Assembly (NCBI GenBank): GCA_028713575.1
Contig: JAQTOB010000014.1
Location: forward strand, 1-9,451
DNA: 9,451 nucleotides
Source: Patescibacteria group bacterium
GTDB lineage: Bacteria; Patescibacteriota; Patescibacteriia; UBA2591; UBA6264
Direction: 5' to 3'
In this document: piece after piece, positions 20-6,095 of the stretch
Layout: every line of letters starts with the position of its first letter
Position numbering within the stretch: position 1 is the stretch's first letter
Made by a program: the position numbers and the translations under genes
The notes under the pieces: model-generated
Told to the model about the DNA's origin: nothing
Databases searched by the model: none
The model's input: only the letters and a program-made list of their open reading frames with translations

Positions 20-96
20 TGGCTCCGGAGGGCGGACTCGAACCGCCGACACGCTGGTTAACAGCCAGCTGCTCTGACCAACTGAGCTACTCCGGA
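20..96 (-). tRNA. tRNA-Asn (anticodon GTT), 77 nt, CCA encoded
   Basis: The reverse complement folds as a full cloverleaf: TCCGGAG-TA-GCTC-AGTTGGTCA-GAGC-A-GCTGG-CTGTTAA-CCAGC-GTGTC-GGCGG-TTCGAGT-CCGCC-CTCCGGA-G-CCA. The anticodon loop is CTGTTAA, giving GTT. Confidence 0.9.
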
Positions 97-105
97 ATAT
101 TGTTA

Positions 106-351
106 CTATTTTATATTGTTAATATCTAACCACTTTCTTCCTTGACCTGTTTTTAAAAACTTTTCTCTCTTCATTGCCTCCTTTTTGGTTTCAAATAACT
201 CTTTATAGATTAAAATTAATGGCTTATTTTGTTTGGTCCATTTATTACATCCTTTGTTGTGCTCTTTTAATCTTATCTCTGGATCTTTAGATGTATAACC
301 AACGTATCTTTTGGAATTTTTTAAACTTTTTAAAATGTATGTAAAATGCAT
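106..351 (-). CDS. Minimal GIY-YIG (URI-domain, COG2827/UPF0213-like) nuclease, 81 aa
   Basis: ATG at 351 and TAG at 108-106. Motifs are FTYIL...YVGYT (GIY/YIG), RLKEH, and EAMKREKFLKTGQGRKWL (conserved Glu/Lys C-terminal helix). It is a paralog of ORF 5455..5718. The stop codon lies 9 nt from the tRNA-Asn 5' end. Confidence 0.8.
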   Translation of the reverse strand: MHFTYILKSLKNSKRYVGYTSKDPEIRLKEHNKGCNKWTKQNKPLILIYKELFETKKEAMKREKFLKTGQGRKWLDINNIK

Positions 352-366
352 ATTAATTATATATTG

Positions 367-396
367 CCAGCCAGAGGCTGGTCCGCCTTCGGCGGA
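367..396. repeat. Two abutting GC-rich hairpins (ccagcc-aga-ggctgg at 367-381; tccgcc-ttc-ggcgga at 382-396)
   Basis: Each has a perfect 6-bp GC-rich stem and a 3-nt loop, with no spacer between them. They lie directly between the tRNA-Asn 5' fragment and the GIY-YIG ORF. No U-tract follows on the minus strand, so they do not look like terminators. Confidence 0.75.
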
Positions 397-412
397 AGCT
401 ACTCCGGAATAT
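397..412 (-). repeat. 16-nt direct repeat of 85..100, made of 4 nt of leader (ATAT) plus nt 1-12 of tRNA-Asn (TCCGGAGTAGCT)
   Basis: agctactccggaatat occurs identically at 85-100 and 397-412. The flanking bases differ on both sides (84 g vs 396 a; 101 t vs 413 g). Confidence 0.9.
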
Positions 413-429
413 GAATTTTAATAAATTTT

Positions 430-457
430 ATTATACCGCTTTTATTTTTTTTGACAA
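430..457 (-). promoter_or_regulatory. Sigma70-type promoter candidate (TTGTCA-16 nt-TATAAT) upstream of the tRNA-Asn fragment/GIY-YIG/tRNA-Asn unit
   Basis: On the minus strand the -35 TTGTCA is at 457-452, the spacer is 16 nt, and the perfect -10 TATAAT is at 435-430. The predicted start is about 15-20 nt upstream of tRNA fragment position 1 (408). AT-rich DNA gives chance matches. Confidence 0.45.
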
Positions 458-462
458 TGATG

Positions 463-486
463 AAAACGGGTCATTTGACCCGTTTT
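463..486 (-). terminator. Rho-independent terminator candidate (bidirectional hairpin) ending the dnaG-rpoD-small ORF unit
   Basis: aaaacgggtc-attt-gacccgtttt has a 6-bp GC core (467-472/477-482) extended by A/T pairs. A T-run follows the stem on either strand. Confidence 0.6.
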
Positions 487-501
487 AAACTTTTTTAATT
501 C

Positions 502-669
502 TTAATTCCCGAATATCACGCTTATAAAAGAAACGGGAATTATAAAAATTACGTGAACAATGATAATTAAACATACTGTCATTGTTCCTGCTATTAACGC
601 CCCTACGGCGATAATAGTTAAAATTAAAAAAGGAAATAAATAAGTAAAAAAATTAATAATTTTTTCCAT
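502..669 (-). CDS. Small hydrophobic protein, 55 aa, two predicted TM segments (not in the supplied ORF track)
   Basis: Hand translation gives MEKIINFFTYLFPFLILTIIAVGALIAGTMTVCLIIIVHVIFIIPVSFISVIFGN, then TAA at 504-502. ATG at 669 is preceded by AAAGGAGGGAGAAAA, a strong SD. It lies 23 nt downstream of the rpoD stop and is followed by the 463-486 terminator. Confidence 0.5.
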   Translation of the reverse strand: MEKIINFFTYLFPFLILTIIAVGALIAGTMTVCLIIIVHVIFIIPVSFISVIFGN

Positions 670-692
670 TTTTCTCCCTCCTTTTTAATATA

Positions 693-1901
693 TTAATAAT
701 AATCTTTAACTTTTTGAATGCCTTTTTGTTGCCTAATTCTCTCCAGGGCTCGCGCCTCAATTTGCCTGATTCTTTCCCGAGTAACATTAAAAACCCTGCC
801 CACTTCTTCCAATGTATGAGCTACGCCGTCGGTCAGGCCGAACCGAATATCCAAAATTCTCTGTTCTCGTGAAGATAATTCCACAACAATTTCTTTAATG
901 TATTTCCTTAAAAGCATCAAAGCGGCAGCCCGATCGGGCGCAATTGATTTTACGTCCTCAATAAAATCCCTTAATTCCGTGTCCTTGTCATCGTCATCGC
1001 CAACCGTGGTTTCTAAAGAGATAACGTCCTGAGATATTTTCAACAAATATCTGGCTTCATCAACCGGCACGCCCATTTCTCCGGCGATCTCTTCCGGTGC
1101 AGGCTGACGTCCCAATTGCTGTAGCAACCATCGTTCTGCTTGATGAAACTTACCTAAAATTTCCACCACATGAACCGGAATTCTAATAGTTCTTGATTGG
1201 TCGGCCAAAGCTCTAATAATCGCTTGTCTAATCCACCAAGTGGCATAAGTGGAAAATTTATATCCTTTTCGCCAATCATATTTTTCCACAGCCCGAAACA
1301 AACCAATATTTCCCTCCTGAATTAAATCTAAAAAGGTTAAACCATAACCGGAAAATTTCTTAGCAATACTAACTACTAAACGCAAATTGGCTTCAATTAA
1401 TTTTTTAGTTGCCTGCTTGTCATTTTTATCCTTTCTTTTTGCTAATTCTACTTCTTCTTTAGGAGAAATTAAAGGCACCCGGCCAATCTCTTTTAAATAC
1501 ATCTGAATTGAATCGGCAGAAAGCTGGCTCAAATCAAAAAACATCTCTTCGCCCTTACTTTCTTTTTTTGGTTCTTCTAAAAGACTTTCTTTGGATTCTT
1601 CAATTTTAATTCCGATTTTTTCCAAAAAATCCAAAAATTCTTCATAGGCCAAGAGATATTTTTCCACTCTGGGAAAAGCATAAAAAAGTTCGTTTTCAGT
1701 AACAAAGCCCCGCTGCTTCCCTTTTCTTAGTATCTCTTGCGCTTCCTGTTCCGGCCATTTTATTGAAGAAGATTTAATTTTCCCAACATTTTTTGAAATC
1801 CGCCCCTTTTTCTTAAAAAATTTTTTTTTAAAAATTTTCTTTATTTTTTTATTTTTAAACATATTATTAACAATCATTAATCTCTTGAGAAACTTTGACA
1901 A
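693..1901 (-). CDS. rpoD: Primary-type RNA polymerase sigma-70 factor
   Basis: Region 1.1-like: [36 protein letters not shown]. Region 1.2: [15 protein letters not shown]. Regions 2.x: [45 protein letters not shown]. Region 4.2: [24 protein letters not shown]. The start is uncertain: 1901 is TTG, and in-frame ATGs occur at 1877 and 1862. Confidence 0.93.
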
Positions 1902-3654
1902 TCTTCTGACTTATTCTTTCAATTTCTTTTTTGTCTTCGCCCTTTTCCGCCTCCTTTAATTCTTGAATTAATTTTTCCATTCTTTTATTCAGGTATTTCT
2001 TTTTTAAAAGATTAGCTAAGCATTTTAATTCTTTTTCTATCTCTTTTAATTTATAATTCTCAAATTCTTTTTCCGCCAAAAAAACAAGAAAATCAAAATA
2101 GGCCTTTGTTTCTTCGTCTTTCGCTTCTTTTTTTATTTTTTCCAAATTAATTTTTTTATTTTTTATAAAAAAATCTTTCATCTTTCTCGCCGCGGCCTGA
2201 TCGCGCGGGTCTAAAAACATCTCTAAAACAACTTCCTTTAATGTTTTTGCCTGGTCCGGATATTTAAGAATTAGGGCTAAAAATTTTTGTCCGGCTTTTT
2301 GTTCAGCGGAAATTTTTTCTGAAAAAACTTCTTCTGAATCGGAAATTTGTTTTAATTGACTAATATTTCTCAAATTATCCCTTAAAGAAATTTCTGAAAC
2401 ATTTAAATCATTGCTTAATTTTTTTAACCAAAGGTCTTGTTCTACTGAATCGCCCAGTTTGGCGATAATGAGCAAAAGAATTCGGCTAATCTGTTTTTTG
2501 TCTTCTATTTTATTTAAATCCTTATCTTTAAACGCCAAAGAAAAATAGTATTCCATAATAGGCTGGGGCTCTTTAACCGCTTTTTTCCATCCGGATAAAT
2601 CAGTGCGAATAAACTCATCGGGGTCTTTCCCTTTCCTCAGTCGCAACACATTAACATTTAAACTTTGTTGAAGAAGCATATCAATGCTTCTTTGCGTAGC
2701 GGCCTGTCCGGCTAAATCAATATCAAACGCCAAAACAATATTAGAAGTATATCTTTGTAAAATCTTGATTTGGTCATGGGTCAAGGCCGTGCCAGAAGTA
2801 CAAATAACATTCTCATAACCTGCTTGATAGCAAGCTAAAACATCCATATTCCCTTCAACTAAAATAAGAAAATCTTCTTTTTTGGCTTTATTTTTTGCCT
2901 TATTTAAACCGTATAAAATCCTGCTTTTATTATAAATTAAAGTATCTGGGGTGTTAATGTATTTAGGCGATTTTTTTTCATCCTCTGACCCAGGTAAAAT
3001 CCTAGCAGTAAAACCGACAATTTGGTCATGAACATCGGCAATAGGAAAGGTAAGGCGATGGCGAAATCGATCATAAAAGCCGCCTCTATTTGATTTAATA
3101 ATCATGCCTGCGGCTTCAATGTCTTTTTCTTTAAATCCCCTTTTGGTTAAAAACTTTAATAAAGCATCCCATTTGTCAGGGACAAAACCAATTTGAAACT
3201 CATTAATGATTTTTTTATTTAATTTTCTTTCTTTTAATAAATAATTTCTCGCTTTTTCCGCCAATGGAGATTCCCAAAAAACCTTGTGATAAAATTCGGC
3301 CGACCAGCGGCAAATGTCAAATAATTTTGTTTTTTGACTGACGGCCTGAGGATTATAACGGTCAATGGTGACACCCGCTCTTTTGGCCAAAACTCTTAAG
3401 GCTTCAGGAAATTCCATATTCTCCATTTTCATAATAAACTTAAAAATATCTCCTCCTTCGTTGCAAGCACCAAAGCAGTGCCAAATTTGTTTTTCCGGGG
3501 AAATAAAAAAGGACGGGGTTTTCTCCCGATGAAAAGGACAAAGAGCGCGAAAACTATTACCAACTTGTCTTACCTGGACATATTCGGAAATCAAATCAAT
3601 AATATCTATTTTTGATTTTATTTCTTCAATTAAATCCATAAATGAAAACAACAA
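1867..3654 (-). CDS. dnaG: DNA primase
   Basis: CHC2 zinc finger: [34 protein letters not shown] polymerase core and TOPRIM: [17 protein letters not shown]. It is adjacent to rpoD, the classical dnaG-rpoD linkage. The tracked start at 3654 is TTG; ATG at 3639 (MDLIEEIK...) is the more likely start. Confidence 0.93.
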
Positions 3655-3747
3655 AATACTTGAGAAAAATTTTCTCTTTTTAATGTTTGTTTATATTATA
3701 TTATTGATTATTAATTAATATAGCAAATTTTAATTAAAAAATCAAGG

Positions 3748-4281
3748 TCAAAACCGATAAACATAAACCAGTGGTCCGTTTTCCCTGATTCTCTCTTTTT
3801 TTTCCGGCACTAATCCATGAATAGAAAAAACGTAAGAAACCACACGACTGCCGGGTCTAAGTTCTTTTTTAAATTTATCTTTTAATTTTTTTTCCAAAAT
3901 TTTCGGTAAAAGATAGGTATAAACCACATCTGCCTGAGACAAATCTTCCTTAAACATACTTTTGGCTTTAAAAACAACTTCTTTGTTCCCTTTTAAAAAA
4001 GCAATAAATTTAGAATATAAAACAAGAGGCAGAGCCGTTTCCAAACCAATGGCCTTTGCCTTAAATTTTTCCTGAGCAAAAAAGACAACCCGACCGTCTC
4101 CGGAACCGAGTTCATAAAATTTTTCTCCCGGTTTTAATTCCGCAATTTGAAAAATTTTCTCCAAATCTTTTTTTTTGGTCGGCACCCAGGGCGCTACAAA
4201 AAAGCAAGCCAAAAACATGGTGATAAAAACATAAATTAAAAACAAACCGATTAAAACCAATAAATATAAAAATATTTGCAT
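3748..4281 (-). CDS. Membrane-anchored class I (seven-beta-strand) SAM-dependent methyltransferase, 177 aa
   Basis: N-terminal TM helix: IFLYLLVLIGLFLIYVFITMFLACFF. Then PWVPT and SAM motif I: YELGSGDGRVVFFA. Its small size is consistent with a single MTase domain. Confidence 0.75.
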   Translation of the reverse strand: MQIFLYLLVLIGLFLIYVFITMFLACFFVAPWVPTKKKDLEKIFQIAELKPGEKFYELGSGDGRVVFFAQEKFKAKAIGLETALPLVLYSKFIAFLKGNKEVVFKAKSMFKEDLSQADVVYTYLLPKILEKKLKDKFKKELRPGSRVVSYVFSIHGLVPEKKERIRENGPLVYVYRF

Positions 4282-4307
4282 AAAAATAAAAAATTATCTC
4301 TATAAAT

Positions 4308-4841
4308 TTACCAAACGGCGCGATTAATATTCGCATCTACTCTAATTCTTTCTCCAGCTACTATTGTAAATGGCATACAAGCGCATTCTTTACCCGGCGG
4401 ACAACTCCATCTATCACAAACATATAAATCGCTGTTACTGCCAGACAAATTATCATAAATAAACAAACTATAATCTCCAGGCTCCAGCTCTGATTCAAAA
4501 TAACCATTCTCGTCTGTTTTAGCTGAAGAAACCAATAAATCGCTGCTATATTTATTAGCCGGCTTAGTGATAAAGACAGTAGTTTTTAGTCCTTTAGGAC
4601 TACAAGGAGCTCTGCCCGGGTCCGGCATACAATTTCCTTGATATATACCAATATTACCAAAAACTGTTCCTCTTTTTTGAATAAACGTTTCCTGTTCTTC
4701 AGTATTGTTAATTTGAAAAGCACATCCAGTAAAAAAAATTACTAAAAAAAATAATCCTATCCCAATATAATATCTTTTTTTTGTCCCATTTTCCCGGGTT
4801 AAATTCCGAATAGTATTAATTATTTTTTTATTGTTATTCAT
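4308..4841 (-). CDS. Secreted/lipoprotein-like Cys-rich protein with a carboxypeptidase-regulatory-like (prealbumin/beta-sandwich) signature
   Basis: N-terminal TM/signal with the lipobox-like motif FFTGC. TDENGYFESELEPGDYSLFIY is typical of CarboxypepD_reg-type folds. The mature part has six further Cys. Confidence 0.65.
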   Translation of the reverse strand: MNNNKKIINTIRNLTRENGTKKRYYIGIGLFFLVIFFTGCAFQINNTEEQETFIQKRGTVFGNIGIYQGNCMPDPGRAPCSPKGLKTTVFITKPANKYSSDLLVSSAKTDENGYFESELEPGDYSLFIYDNLSGSNSDLYVCDRWSCPPGKECACMPFTIVAGERIRVDANINRAVW

Positions 4842-4930
4842 ATAATTATTGTTTTATTTTATAAAAACATCCGAATACTGTCTTTTCTTTATTATATAAC
4901 AAAAACTGACGCGCCGGATAAAATTCTTCT

Positions 4931-5326
4931 TTATTTAATATTTAAAAGAATGGTTTTTTCATTTATTATTCCATCTTCAACGATAATTTGTTCCGGCTCA
5001 GGCATTCTCAAATTTTTTGGAAATGTATTTTGATTAAAATAAAGAAAATAACTGCCGGGCTTAACGTTAAACTCCGCTACCCCGTTTTGATCGGTAATGA
5101 CCACTCCTCCTGCCGGCGGTTGACCCGGTTGCTGGGCCAAATCAATTTCTAAATTCGGTACCACGACATTATTATTTTCCATTTTTGCCACAACGATAAG
5201 TTGCGCTTCACCACGAATACTGTTTAATTTTTCTGCAGAAAAACTTGAATTAAAAGGAAATATATTTCCCACAATATAGCCAAAAATTAAAGCAAAAATA
5301 AGAATAATCCATATAATATTTTTCAT
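4931..5326 (-). CDS. Secreted/membrane-anchored protein with a carboxypeptidase-regulatory-like beta-sandwich signature, 131 aa
   Basis: N-terminal hydrophobic helix: IIWIILIFALIFGYIVG. TDQNGVAEFNVKPGSYFLYF parallels the motif in the neighbouring ORF 4308..4841. Confidence 0.65.
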   Translation of the reverse strand: MKNIIWIILIFALIFGYIVGNIFPFNSSFSAEKLNSIRGEAQLIVVAKMENNNVVVPNLEIDLAQQPGQPPAGGVVITDQNGVAEFNVKPGSYFLYFNQNTFPKNLRMPEPEQIIVEDGIINEKTILLNIK

Positions 5327-5360
5327 AATTTTATTTAATAAAACAATTGATTAGATTATT

Positions 5361-5450
5361 TGGCGGAGAGGGCGGGATTCGAACCCGCGATACCGTTTCC
5401 GGTATACGTGCTTTCCAGGCACGCCCTTTCGGCCGCTCAGGCACCTCTCC
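5361..5450 (-). tRNA. tRNA-Ser (anticodon GGA), 90 nt, long variable arm, CCA encoded
   Basis: The reverse complement is GGAGAGG-TG-CCTGAGCGGCCGAAAGG-G-CGTGC-CTGGAAA-GCACG-TATACCGGAAACGGTATC-GCGGG-TTCGAAT-CCCGC-CCTCTCC-G-CCA. It has the class II variable arm expected for Ser. Confidence 0.9.
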
Positions 5451-5735
5451 AAAATTACTTTTTGCCAATTTTTTCAAAAAGAACTGATAATTGTTGTTTT
5501 AAAAATCTTTTACCGTCGCTGGTTTTTAAAAACTTTTCACGGCGCAAAGCATCCTGCTTTAAAAAATATGCCTCATAGTGTATTAACTTCAATGGCCTTC
5601 GTTTAATTGTAGACCTAACTTTTCCTTCGCAATGTTCTCTCAGCCGCCTTTTTAAATTTTTTGTGAAGCCTGTGTAGATTTGATTGTTGTTCAGTAATAA
5701 AATATAAATATAATACATTTTATTATGTAAATTAT
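5451..5735 (-). mobile_element. Putative tRNA-Ser-associated GIY-YIG cassette between the truncated and intact tRNA-Ser copies
   Basis: The ORF plus short AT-rich flanks (17 nt upstream, 4 nt downstream) is the only sequence separating tRNA-Ser nt 1-76 (upstream copy) from the intact gene. Mobility is inferred. Confidence 0.4.
5455..5718 (-). CDS. Minimal GIY-YIG (URI-domain, COG2827/UPF0213-like) nuclease, 87 aa
   Basis: ATG at 5718 and TAA at 5457-5455. Motifs are YYIYIL...YTGFT, RLREH and [18 protein letters not shown]. Hand alignment gives roughly 35-40 percent identity to ORF 106..351. The stop codon lies only 4 nt (TTTT) from tRNA-Ser position 1. Confidence 0.8.
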
Positions 5736-5740
5736 GGATT

Positions 5741-5827
5741 CGCCCCGAGATGAACTCGGGGCGCTACGGGTTAATCCCGTGTTAGCGCCCCGAGATGAAC
5801 TCGGGGCGCTACGGGTTAATCCCGTAG
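5741..5827. repeat. Tandem 45/42-nt repeat, each unit carrying two hairpins (cgccccgag-atgaa-ctcggggcg and ctacggg-ttaat-cccgtag), inserted in the T-loop of the truncated tRNA-Ser
   Basis: Unit 1 is 5741-5785 and unit 2 is 5786-5827. They differ only by 3 extra nt (cccgtGTTag vs cccgtag). The stems are 9 bp and 7 bp and perfect. GC is about 64 percent against an AT-rich background. Confidence 0.9.
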
Positions 5828-5882
5828 CGAACCCGCGATACCGTTTCCGGTATACGTGCTTTCCAGGCACGCCCTTTCGGCC

Positions 5883-5922
5883 CCTGCCTGCCGGCAGGCA
5901 GGCCTGCCTGCCGGCAGGCAGG
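5883..5922. repeat. Two tandem copies of the 20-nt perfect palindrome cctgcctgccggcaggcagg, inserted in the D-loop of the truncated tRNA-Ser
   Basis: 5883-5902 and 5903-5922 are identical. Each is its own reverse complement and 80 percent GC. The insertion lies exactly between tRNA nt 16 and 17 by comparison with the intact gene. Confidence 0.92.
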
Positions 5923-5942
5923 GCTCAGGCACCTCTCCACAC

Positions 5943-5957
5943 CTCGCTTTAAGCGAG
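5943..5957. other. Small hairpin (ctcgc-tttaa-gcgag) 4 nt upstream of the truncated tRNA-Ser copy
   Basis: A 5-bp stem seen directly. Function unknown; it could be a leader structure or a transcript 5' end. Confidence 0.4.
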
Positions 5958-5960
5958 TAA

Positions 5961-5988
5961 ATTCTAAACTCTAAGCTCCAAATTCCAA
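5961..5988 (-). promoter_or_regulatory. Weak promoter candidate (TTGGAA-16 nt-TAGAAT) upstream of the tRNA-Ser fragment
   Basis: On the minus strand the -35 is at 5988-5983 and the -10 at 5966-5961. Both hexamers fall inside repeated AAATTCYAAA motifs. The alternative TTGCCT-16-TATAAT at 6090-6063 is also possible. Specificity is low in AT-rich DNA. Confidence 0.25.
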
Positions 5989-6095
5989 ATAATATCTAAA
6001 TCCAAAATTCTAAATAAAAAACTAAAATATAAAAACCAGAATTAGAATAAAATTATAAAAATATTATAGCAAAATAATAAACAAAGGCAAGAAAA

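Follow-up and report, generated by a model that had tools for sequence, protein, structure and literature searches.

The question raised by the window analysed here, the complete 9451-bp contig from a Patescibacteria genome bin, is why two very small GIY-YIG nuclease genes should each lie directly in front of a complete tRNA gene and directly behind a broken piece of that same gene. What business does a nuclease have with a tRNA, and how can an essential single-copy gene be occupied in this manner without being lost? Probably, each of the two open reading frames (ORFs) is the nuclease gene of a selfish, homing-type cassette of 0.3-0.5 kb that has lodged in a tRNA gene and rebuilds the tRNA. 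The observations that carry this reading are an arrangement repeated across the protein family, relatives in which the site is empty, and tRNA fragments that remain identical to the complete tRNA within each genome. Both loci of the window are read from the minus strand in the same order, namely promoter, 5' part of the tRNA, GC-rich double hairpin, 2-6 further nucleotides (nt) of tRNA, an AT-rich spacer of 13-17 nt, the ORF and, finally, the complete tRNA. The Asn locus, which holds ORF A, is composed as follows.

20-96, minus strand: complete tRNA-Asn(GTT), the functional copy (ARAGORN; Rfam tRNA, 69 bits)
106-351, minus strand: ORF A, an 81-amino-acid (aa) single-domain GIY-YIG nuclease of the Slx1/UPF0213 type (Pfam, conserved residues, AlphaFold2, Foldseek)
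352-366, minus strand: AT-rich spacer CAATATATAATTAAT separating the hairpin element from the ATG (sequence; the arrangement recurs in relatives)
367-396, minus strand: consensus double hairpin TCCGCCGAAGGCGGA + CCAGCCTCTGGCTGG, after tRNA nt 12 of the leftover copy (hairpin search, folding)
397-412, minus strand: leftover 5' tRNA-Asn fragment, 4 leader nt plus nt 1-12 (16/16 identical to 85-100)
430-457, minus strand: sigma-70-like promoter TTGTCA-16-TATAAT (11/12 match; aligns with the promoter of the empty-site relatives)

The spacer opens with CA, which is the continuation of tRNA-Asn (nt 13-14), and the double hairpin, folded as DNA, has an energy of -12.2 kcal/mol (z -4.9). Judged by its sequence, the promoter at 430-457 is the native one of tRNA-Asn, now facing the fragment, ORF A and the tRNA. 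The Ser locus, with ORF B, repeats this plan in a more elaborate form.

5361-5450, minus strand: complete tRNA-Ser(GGA) (ARAGORN)
5455-5718, minus strand: ORF B, an 87-aa single-domain GIY-YIG nuclease (Pfam, BLASTP)
5719-5741, minus strand: GAATCC, the T-loop continuation of the leftover tRNA-Ser, then the AT-rich spacer ATAATTTACATAATAAA before the ATG (sequence, relatives)
5742-5827, minus strand: tandem pair of double hairpins (GCTACGGGATTAACCCGTAGC + GCCCCGAGTTCATCTCGGGGC), about 86 nt, between GGTTC and GAATCC (sequence, folding)
5828-5882, minus strand: leftover tRNA-Ser segment, nt 17-71 (55/55 identical to 5380-5434)
5883-5922, minus strand: tandem pair of the palindrome CCTGCCTGCCGGCAGGCAGG, 40 nt, in the D loop of the leftover tRNA-Ser (sequence, folding, relatives)
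5923-5939, minus strand: leftover 5' end of tRNA-Ser, 1 leader nt plus nt 1-16 (17/17 identical to 5435-5451)
5961-5988, minus strand: candidate promoter TTGGAA-16-TAGAAT, upstream of the leftover tRNA-Ser (sequence)
6063-6090, minus strand: stronger promoter candidate TTGCCT-16-TATAAT (sequence)

A first-pass annotation, made from the letters of the DNA alone, had proposed much of this. It held that both ORFs end 4-9 nt before a tRNA, and the stop codon of ORF A indeed lies 9 nt from nt 1 of tRNA-Asn and that of ORF B 4 nt from nt 1 of tRNA-Ser; it also described the Asn repeat as free of mismatches, as it is. Its figure of 76/76 for the Ser repeat was right about identity and wrong about contiguity, as the match consists of blocks of 17 and 55 nt plus AATCC (5736-5740) and becomes true only after two inserts have been spliced out. 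The double hairpins interrupting the fragments, the tRNA promoter upstream and the empty sites in relatives are features that go beyond it. At the Ser locus the tandem double hairpin folds with -41.9 kcal/mol (z -10.8). Three relatives (L082, L083, L172) have a single copy of the T-loop double hairpin, and since the close relatives also lack the D-loop palindrome, both the tandem copy and the insert at 5883-5922 are recent. The promoter of L082, TTGCTT-N17-TACAAT, stands immediately upstream of its tRNA-Ser fragment. The palindrome CCTGCCTGCCGGCAGGCAGG is also found within tRNA fragments of unrelated loci (L086, L051, L089, L067), and this recurrence, together with its absence from close relatives, suggests that it can insert or expand on its own. 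A further single hairpin, CTCGCTTAAAGCGAG, is located at 5943-5957, 4 nt upstream of the leftover tRNA-Ser, and 5960-6060 is a low-complexity AT-rich stretch with short repeats where the relatives have a plain promoter.

What kind of protein do these genes encode? Both ORFs match PF01541 (ORF A with E 9e-18 and 64.7 bits, ORF B with E 8e-17 and 61.7 bits, against a cut-off of 22.6), so they are not unrelated folds and their description as two divergent GIY-YIG paralogs is borne out; the divergence, however, had been estimated by hand at 35-40% identity, where BLASTP gives 43% over 75 aa. The domain spans residues 1-68 of the 81- and 87-aa proteins without extensions, which makes both a catalytic domain only, lacking the separate DNA-binding domain of enzymes of the SegB type. 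Residues Y5, Y16, G18, R27, H31, E51, E63 and K67 are invariant across 50 sequences and, by analogy, may be assigned catalytic roles. The AlphaFold2 model (predicted local distance difference test, pLDDT, 96) consists of a three-stranded sheet and helices, for which Foldseek returns 1ZG2, Slx1 (template-modelling score, TM, 0.70), I-TevI and the N-terminal domains of UvrC, the closest being 1ZG2 and Slx1; at the sequence level 1ZG2 (5e-15) and 1YWL (1e-14) are followed by SLX1. Sequence and predicted fold place ORF A and ORF B in the stand-alone Slx1/UPF0213 branch of the GIY-YIG superfamily. Other collections add little: NCBIfam gives a sub-threshold match to a group I intron endonuclease model (TIGR01453, 21 bits against a cut-off of 56), PHROGs a weak 'homing endonuclease' match for ORF A only, and PADLOC a marginal UzuA match with no link to a defence system. 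In the literature on the UPF0213/YhbQ family no biological role, tRNA-gene link, repeats or mobility were found.

The two genes also share an identical 17-mer. Its existence is real, its coordinates having been reported one base off (they are 149-165 and 5522-5538). The 17-mer encodes (R)EKFLKT and is absent from all 80 related loci. As evidence it counts for little, because a conserved peptide combined with AT-rich codon use gives, by rough estimate, a chance of identity of a few percent.

Is the pairing of nuclease and tRNA in this one contig more than coincidence? A scan for the family, with one genome per species, confirmed 547 loci, and the best 80 of these were retained; the family set, including the window, comprises 89 ORFs, 81 of them with at least 120 nt of DNA downstream. 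The hosts are many classes of Patescibacteria together with bins labelled Omnitrophota, Ignavibacteria, Bacteroidota, Elusimicrobiota and Acidobacteriota. A tRNA on the same strand starts between -15 and +200 nt from the end of the domain in 63 of the 81 ORFs (in 55 within 41 nt), and a tRNA on the opposite strand follows in none (0/81), which upholds the proposal of a family-level association. Among the remaining ORFs, five or six precede a tRNA-Asn that a group I intron divides, four lie inside tandem arrays as inner units and four have a mirror-image layout (tRNA, ORF, 3' fragment). Two loci (L079, L054) considered as split or 'intron-like' tRNA were rejected as such, Rfam finding a complete tRNA right after the domain.

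The same holds upstream. Once hairpins are removed, a 5' fragment of at least 12 nt of the ORF's own tRNA precedes 57 of 62 ORFs; 46 of these 57 fragments begin at nt 1-3 and 33 are perfect, with 59 mismatches in the 1879 nt aligned overall. Of 77 ORFs, 62 stand between direct repeats at least 12 nt long, compared with 3 of 167 control positions, which excludes a chance association. The layout of the family is that of the window: native tRNA promoter, 5' tRNA part with a double hairpin always 2-9 nt before the fragment breaks off, an AT-rich spacer of 10-25 nt, ORF and complete tRNA. Insertion recurs at conserved positions of the tRNA gene, in the D loop, the anticodon arm and the T loop (GGTTC^GAATCC). 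The length of the repeat ranges from 12 to about 70 nt, and target-site duplication by one staggered cut is thus rejected. A local segmental duplication, already doubted in the first-pass annotation, is excluded as the source of the pairing. That annotation had also suggested mapping tRNA identity onto the relatives as a means to separate co-divergence from switching. In 39 of 59 cases an ORF and its nearest protein relative sit at tRNAs of one and the same isotype, where permutation gives 8.5 on average and 21 at most; the isotypes used number at least 13, and switches between close proteins are many, so that both descent and switching occur.

How, then, is the tRNA expressed? In the window promoters are located upstream of the fragments, and between ORF and tRNA there is neither room nor a match to the consensus; the functional tRNA would thus be transcribed through the nuclease gene, and ORF and tRNA are likely to be co-transcribed from the tRNA promoter. 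In 13 loci the stop codon overlaps the 5' end of the tRNA by 10-11 nt, lying at tRNA nt 8-10 where the sequence was read. In five others from Ignavibacteria and Bacteroidota (L045, L046, L052, L066, L078) the ORF runs about 23 nt into tRNA-Ser before its stop codon. With a stop codon inside the tRNA, RNase P processing would yield mRNAs without a stop codon.

Could the whole arrangement have a more ordinary cause, such as a decayed group I intron, an island of the integrase type or an artefact of metagenome assembly? Group I introns are certainly close at hand. The tRNA-Asn(GTT) downstream of the cassette holds one in its anticodon loop in L003, L013, L025, L031 and L039 (Rfam RF00028, 64-95 bits) and, judged by eye, in L037 and L086, and the 5' fragments of the Asn clade stop at about the same position as the intron site. 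These introns and the weak NCBIfam match would suit an intron origin; nevertheless, RF00028 has no match in the window at E up to 1, and the downstream tRNAs are complete. Fragments of tRNA are likewise typical of integrated islands (PMC9897764); here, however, no integrase is present, the duplication concerns the 5' and not the 3' part of the tRNA, and the inserted DNA measures only about 0.3 kb. As for assembly, many contigs terminate within or beside cassettes (L084, L085, L081, L019-L023, L042 and others), because tRNA and hairpin repeats break short-read assemblies; set against this as a general explanation is the recurrence of the same layout in more than 60 independent assemblies from different pipelines. 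Ordinary causes are thus largely refuted and, taken together, very improbable. Six contigs labelled viral in IMG/VR (L086-L091) also hold family members; as L086 shares the layout of fragment, palindrome, ORF and tRNA, the contig may be mislabelled, or the cassette may occur in phages.

If the cassette is mobile, sites without it should be found. In relatives whose rpoD is 85-92% identical, that gene is accompanied by the small membrane ORF, by the same promoter and by a tRNA-Asn without interruption; the cassette is present in 0 of 80 rpoD relatives, and in 22 rpoD is followed by a plain tRNA-Asn. In the empty site of L098 the leader is identical (..CATAT|TCCGGAG) and tRNA-Asn differs by one base, from which it follows that the window carries a 312-nt insertion between nt 12 and 13 of tRNA-Asn. 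An empty Ser site was sought through the 131-aa neighbour of tRNA-Ser, where both contigs found end at the tRNA. Downstream of rpoD in a 90% relative (L093), a different GIY-YIG subfamily (MEYLVYAIYN...KIYIGQ) is inserted in tRNA-Asn after nt 28, with the single hairpin TCCGCCAGCTGGCGGA; that contig ends in a repeated partial unit.

Other loci display the traces that repeated movement might leave. Tandem arrays occur in L010, L058 and L064, and several tRNAs within one cluster are occupied in L065 and L067. Remnants without an ORF, made up of a tRNA fragment, double hairpin, short AT-rich spacer and complete tRNA, are found in L099 (300-480 nt after rpoD) and in L065 (1380-1530), indicating that the nuclease gene can be lost and the scar remain. 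In L001, L027 and L029 displaced pieces of the resident tRNA, of differing sequence, lie beside the cassette's own tRNA. Fragment and complete tRNA, moreover, evolve in concert: the ORF B homologue of L082/L083 is separated from ORF B by a synonymous divergence (pS) of 0.31 and their tRNA-Ser differs from that of the window at positions 16, 19, 29 and 43, and still the fragment equals the complete tRNA within each genome (the window, L082/L083 and likewise L172). This supports the 'recent insertion or continuing gene conversion' that had been put forward for the repeats.

The ratio of nonsynonymous to synonymous divergence (pN/pS) between ORF B and its relative in L082 is 0.09, meaning strong purifying selection, which counts in favour of the nuclease of the cassette reading and also brings in the idea of a domesticated host gene, in which the nuclease would serve the tRNA locus, for example in the resolution of R-loops or branched DNA where tRNA genes are highly transcribed or in precursor processing, and the fragments and hairpins would be regulatory elements of the leader. 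Co-divergence with the host locus, a presumed obligate co-transcription with an essential tRNA and a very large family (28,377 profile-matching clusters at 50% identity, of which 7,329 reach E 1e-10 or better) all sit well with such a role. A host function is harder to reconcile with a patchy distribution among close relatives and empty sites, with contigs in which several copies occupy different tRNAs, with tandem arrays, remnants lacking the ORF and displaced pieces of foreign tRNA, and with leftover tRNA pieces that have no obvious use; domestication is accordingly judged distinctly unlikely.

This leaves the hairpins, and what is it about them that should make them so constant a partner of the nuclease? 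Two adjacent perfect GC-rich hairpins, searched for blindly in 408 kb, occur 87 times. Of these, 54 start no more than 100 nt upstream of the ATG, most others come shortly after the ORF and no more than 3 are separated from a reference GIY-YIG ORF by over 1 kb; the 280 kb of rpoD loci contain a single one, in an ORF-less remnant. Copies are thus not scattered independently of one gene as dispersed repeats of the REP (repetitive extragenic palindrome) or MITE (miniature inverted-repeat transposable element) kind would be. Rfam, searched with the window at E up to 1, returned the two tRNAs and chance microRNA-type matches on the palindromes, and no known RNA family for the hairpins. With only the cores required (GCC-NNN-GGC twice), there are 66 distinct copies; in 57 of them the six outer stem pairs are all Watson-Crick, and at least two pair types occur at every outer stem position, i.e. 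the stems covary. Loop 1 matches the reverse complement of loop 2 in composition, both having A at position 3 in 63 of 66, and the outer stems of the two hairpins differ in 62 of 66. The matching loop compositions point to a two-fold-symmetric consensus, a symmetry that would fit recognition at the level of DNA better than a role in RNA. Pairing between the two loops was considered and rejected, there being no correlation within elements. The sites occupied in the tRNA are 7/8, 12/13, 17/18, 20/21, 28/29, 35/36 and the T loop, where 20 cases among the family loci share the GAATCC junction of the window's Ser locus. In the clade of ORF B the hairpin sequences are different, yet a double hairpin always lies between GGTTC and GAATCC. 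Hairpins acting purely as breakers of homology are not a sufficient explanation, as uninterrupted identical stretches of 54-55 nt persist.

These properties give rise to the main rival of the homing cassette, a hairpin-centred and structure-guided mechanism. Here the Slx1-like nuclease, probably as a dimer, would recognise the double hairpin as a cruciform or symmetric duplex and cut a few nucleotides outside it, and cassettes would spread by repair or recombination at hairpin-bearing sites and not by cutting naive tRNA genes. The near-exclusive presence of the element in cassettes and its matching loops with unlike outer stems speak for this, as does the position of the junction, which on either side keeps a distance of about 5-12 nt from the edge of the hairpin (2 nt for the window's Asn copy), a spacing that holds in both the usual and the mirror-image layout (L051, L063, L071). 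Direct repeats of half-site, hairpin and half-site flank L001, L051 and L063, the modelled fold is nearest to the structure-specific Slx1, and divergent protein clades have divergent but still double hairpins. The first entry into a hairpin-free tRNA gene is, however, left unexplained, and the orientation of hairpin to tRNA is fixed within clades so that descent alone could give the pattern. The mechanism, partly compatible with the homing cassette and not exclusive of it, is considered rather unlikely as the explanation of these loci.

In the homing cassette, which remains the preferred reading, events would run as follows. The nuclease would break a tRNA gene at or near the D-loop, anticodon-arm or T-loop positions and the break would be repaired from a cassette-bearing copy, i.e. 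by homing. The cassette would supply or duplicate the 5' part of the tRNA, so that the essential tRNA is restored downstream and its former 5' part stays behind upstream. ORF and tRNA would form one transcript from the tRNA promoter, with the RNase P cut at the 5' end of the tRNA setting the 3' end of the mRNA. The rebuilt tRNA would again be a target, and repeated cutting and repair could generate the tandem arrays and the identity of fragment and tRNA. In the leftover copy the target would be split by the hairpin element, which probably serves the nuclease as a site at the level of DNA. The cutting chemistry and this role of the hairpin are what we infer.

A number of points weigh against this sequence of events. 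Nuclease activity and transfer are both inferred, and the absence of a DNA-binding module like that of I-TevI or SegB leaves sequence-specific recognition of a tRNA gene unexplained. Since rebuilding the tRNA also restores the presumed target, renewed cutting of the host chromosome would be expected, to be avoided only by low expression or by a target that depends on structure. Simple homing needs no conserved, covarying, two-fold-symmetric hairpin element and offers no explanation for the 2-9 nt of tRNA that follow the hairpin. Finally, strong purifying selection and co-divergence with the host at a pS of 0.31 would also fit a domesticated gene.

Why does any of this matter? As far as could be found, the cassette is widespread and undescribed; on the preferred reading it is a free-standing GIY-YIG homing gene at tRNA genes. 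The literature searched on GIY-YIG proteins, UPF0213/YhbQ, Patescibacteria, the candidate phyla radiation (CPR) and double-hairpin elements yielded no description of a cassette linked to tRNA genes; a 2024 study of insertions in CPR rRNA speaks of GIY-YIG ORFs solely within rRNA inserts, without linkage to tRNA, and the GIY-YIG family survey of Dunin-Horkawicz et al. 2006 does not mention such linkage (PMC1564403). A very large family of tiny nucleases (the 28,377 clusters) would be given the role of a selfish invader of tRNA genes, one that colonises an essential single-copy gene without its loss as it rebuilds the tRNA and uses its promoter. In the streamlined genomes of Patescibacteria, tRNA genes would depend on read-through of a parasite's gene, and there are practical effects in the form of split contigs and false partial tRNA calls. 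More tentatively, the cassettes may represent an unrecognised class of minimal mobile element, in which an Slx1/UPF0213-like nuclease without a DNA-binding domain finds its target through DNA structure, whether the cloverleaf-prone tRNA gene, the double hairpin or both. Were that so, a structure-guided nuclease could colonise any tRNA gene at its loop positions while rebuilding the tRNA, and much or all of the 'conserved hypothetical' UPF0213 family would gain a biological role. This structure-guided aspect has a fair chance of being new in kind, and the symmetric double hairpin with a nuclease reduced to its catalytic domain would be a compact system for the study of structure-guided DNA targeting.

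It remains to ask which known systems these cassettes most resemble. REP elements and their RAYT proteins also combine short GC-rich palindromic units in cis with a small nuclease-type gene, but RAYT is an HUH enzyme and REPs are scattered between genes, whereas the hairpin here is found almost only beside a GIY-YIG ORF inside tRNA fragments. Islands of the integrase type likewise have tRNA genes as their target; the gene is restored, and part of the tRNA remains as a direct repeat. They differ in their tyrosine integrase, in duplicating the 3' part of the tRNA and in being kilobases long, and the cassettes, with a GIY-YIG gene as their only ORF, no recombinase, a duplicated 5' part and a length of about 0.3 kb, do not belong with them. 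Nor are they group I intron-encoded endonucleases, as the ORFs do not lie within a group I intron. A further parallel is the element in mitochondrial atp6 of Allomyces (Paquin, Laforest and Lang 1994/2000), reportedly a GIY-YIG ORF that carries a replacement piece of its target gene and, as here, leaves the displaced part of an essential gene as a pseudo-fragment; GC-rich double hairpins are said to occur in the same genomes, next to the insertion point. That element differs in occupying a mitochondrial protein-coding gene whose 3' part is replaced, and its double hairpins are reportedly dispersed genome-wide, in contrast to their confinement to cassettes here.

In protein terms the nearest kin are UPF0213/YhbQ and the stand-alone Slx1-like proteins (PDB 1ZG2, 1YWL; PMC1564403), which provide the best matches in sequence and fold, the same minimal single-domain architecture and the same conserved Y, Y, R, H and E residues. 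The closest known system as a whole is SegB of phage T4, a free-standing GIY-YIG homing endonuclease in a tRNA cluster that recognises GGTTCRANTCC and is co-transcribed with the tRNAs, the processing of the downstream tRNA severing its stop codon (PMC2330249); F-TflI-III of phage T5 are likewise free-standing GIY-YIG homing endonucleases in tRNA gene clusters (cited in PMC2330249). SegB differs in that its N-terminal GIY-YIG motif is joined by a C-terminal DNA-binding region (NUMOD3) and in being phage-borne, whereas the proteins here are catalytic domains of 81-87 aa from the Slx1/UPF0213 branch on bacterial chromosomes, and SegB is not reported with a duplicated 5' tRNA fragment or a conserved double hairpin. 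In both, a GIY-YIG gene lies among co-oriented tRNAs (here in 63 of 63), with no enclosing intron in the window; the recognition core GGTTCRANTCC coincides with the break site of the T-loop class, including ORF B of the window; the mRNA would here too lie within a tRNA precursor, with the end of the ORF abutting the next tRNA; and presence varies among relatives at the same locus, as the empty rpoD-tRNA-Asn sites illustrate. With its junction inside GGTTC^GAATCC, its tandem arrays and its concerted evolution, the cassette would, like a homing gene, cleave a cassette-free allele and copy itself into it.

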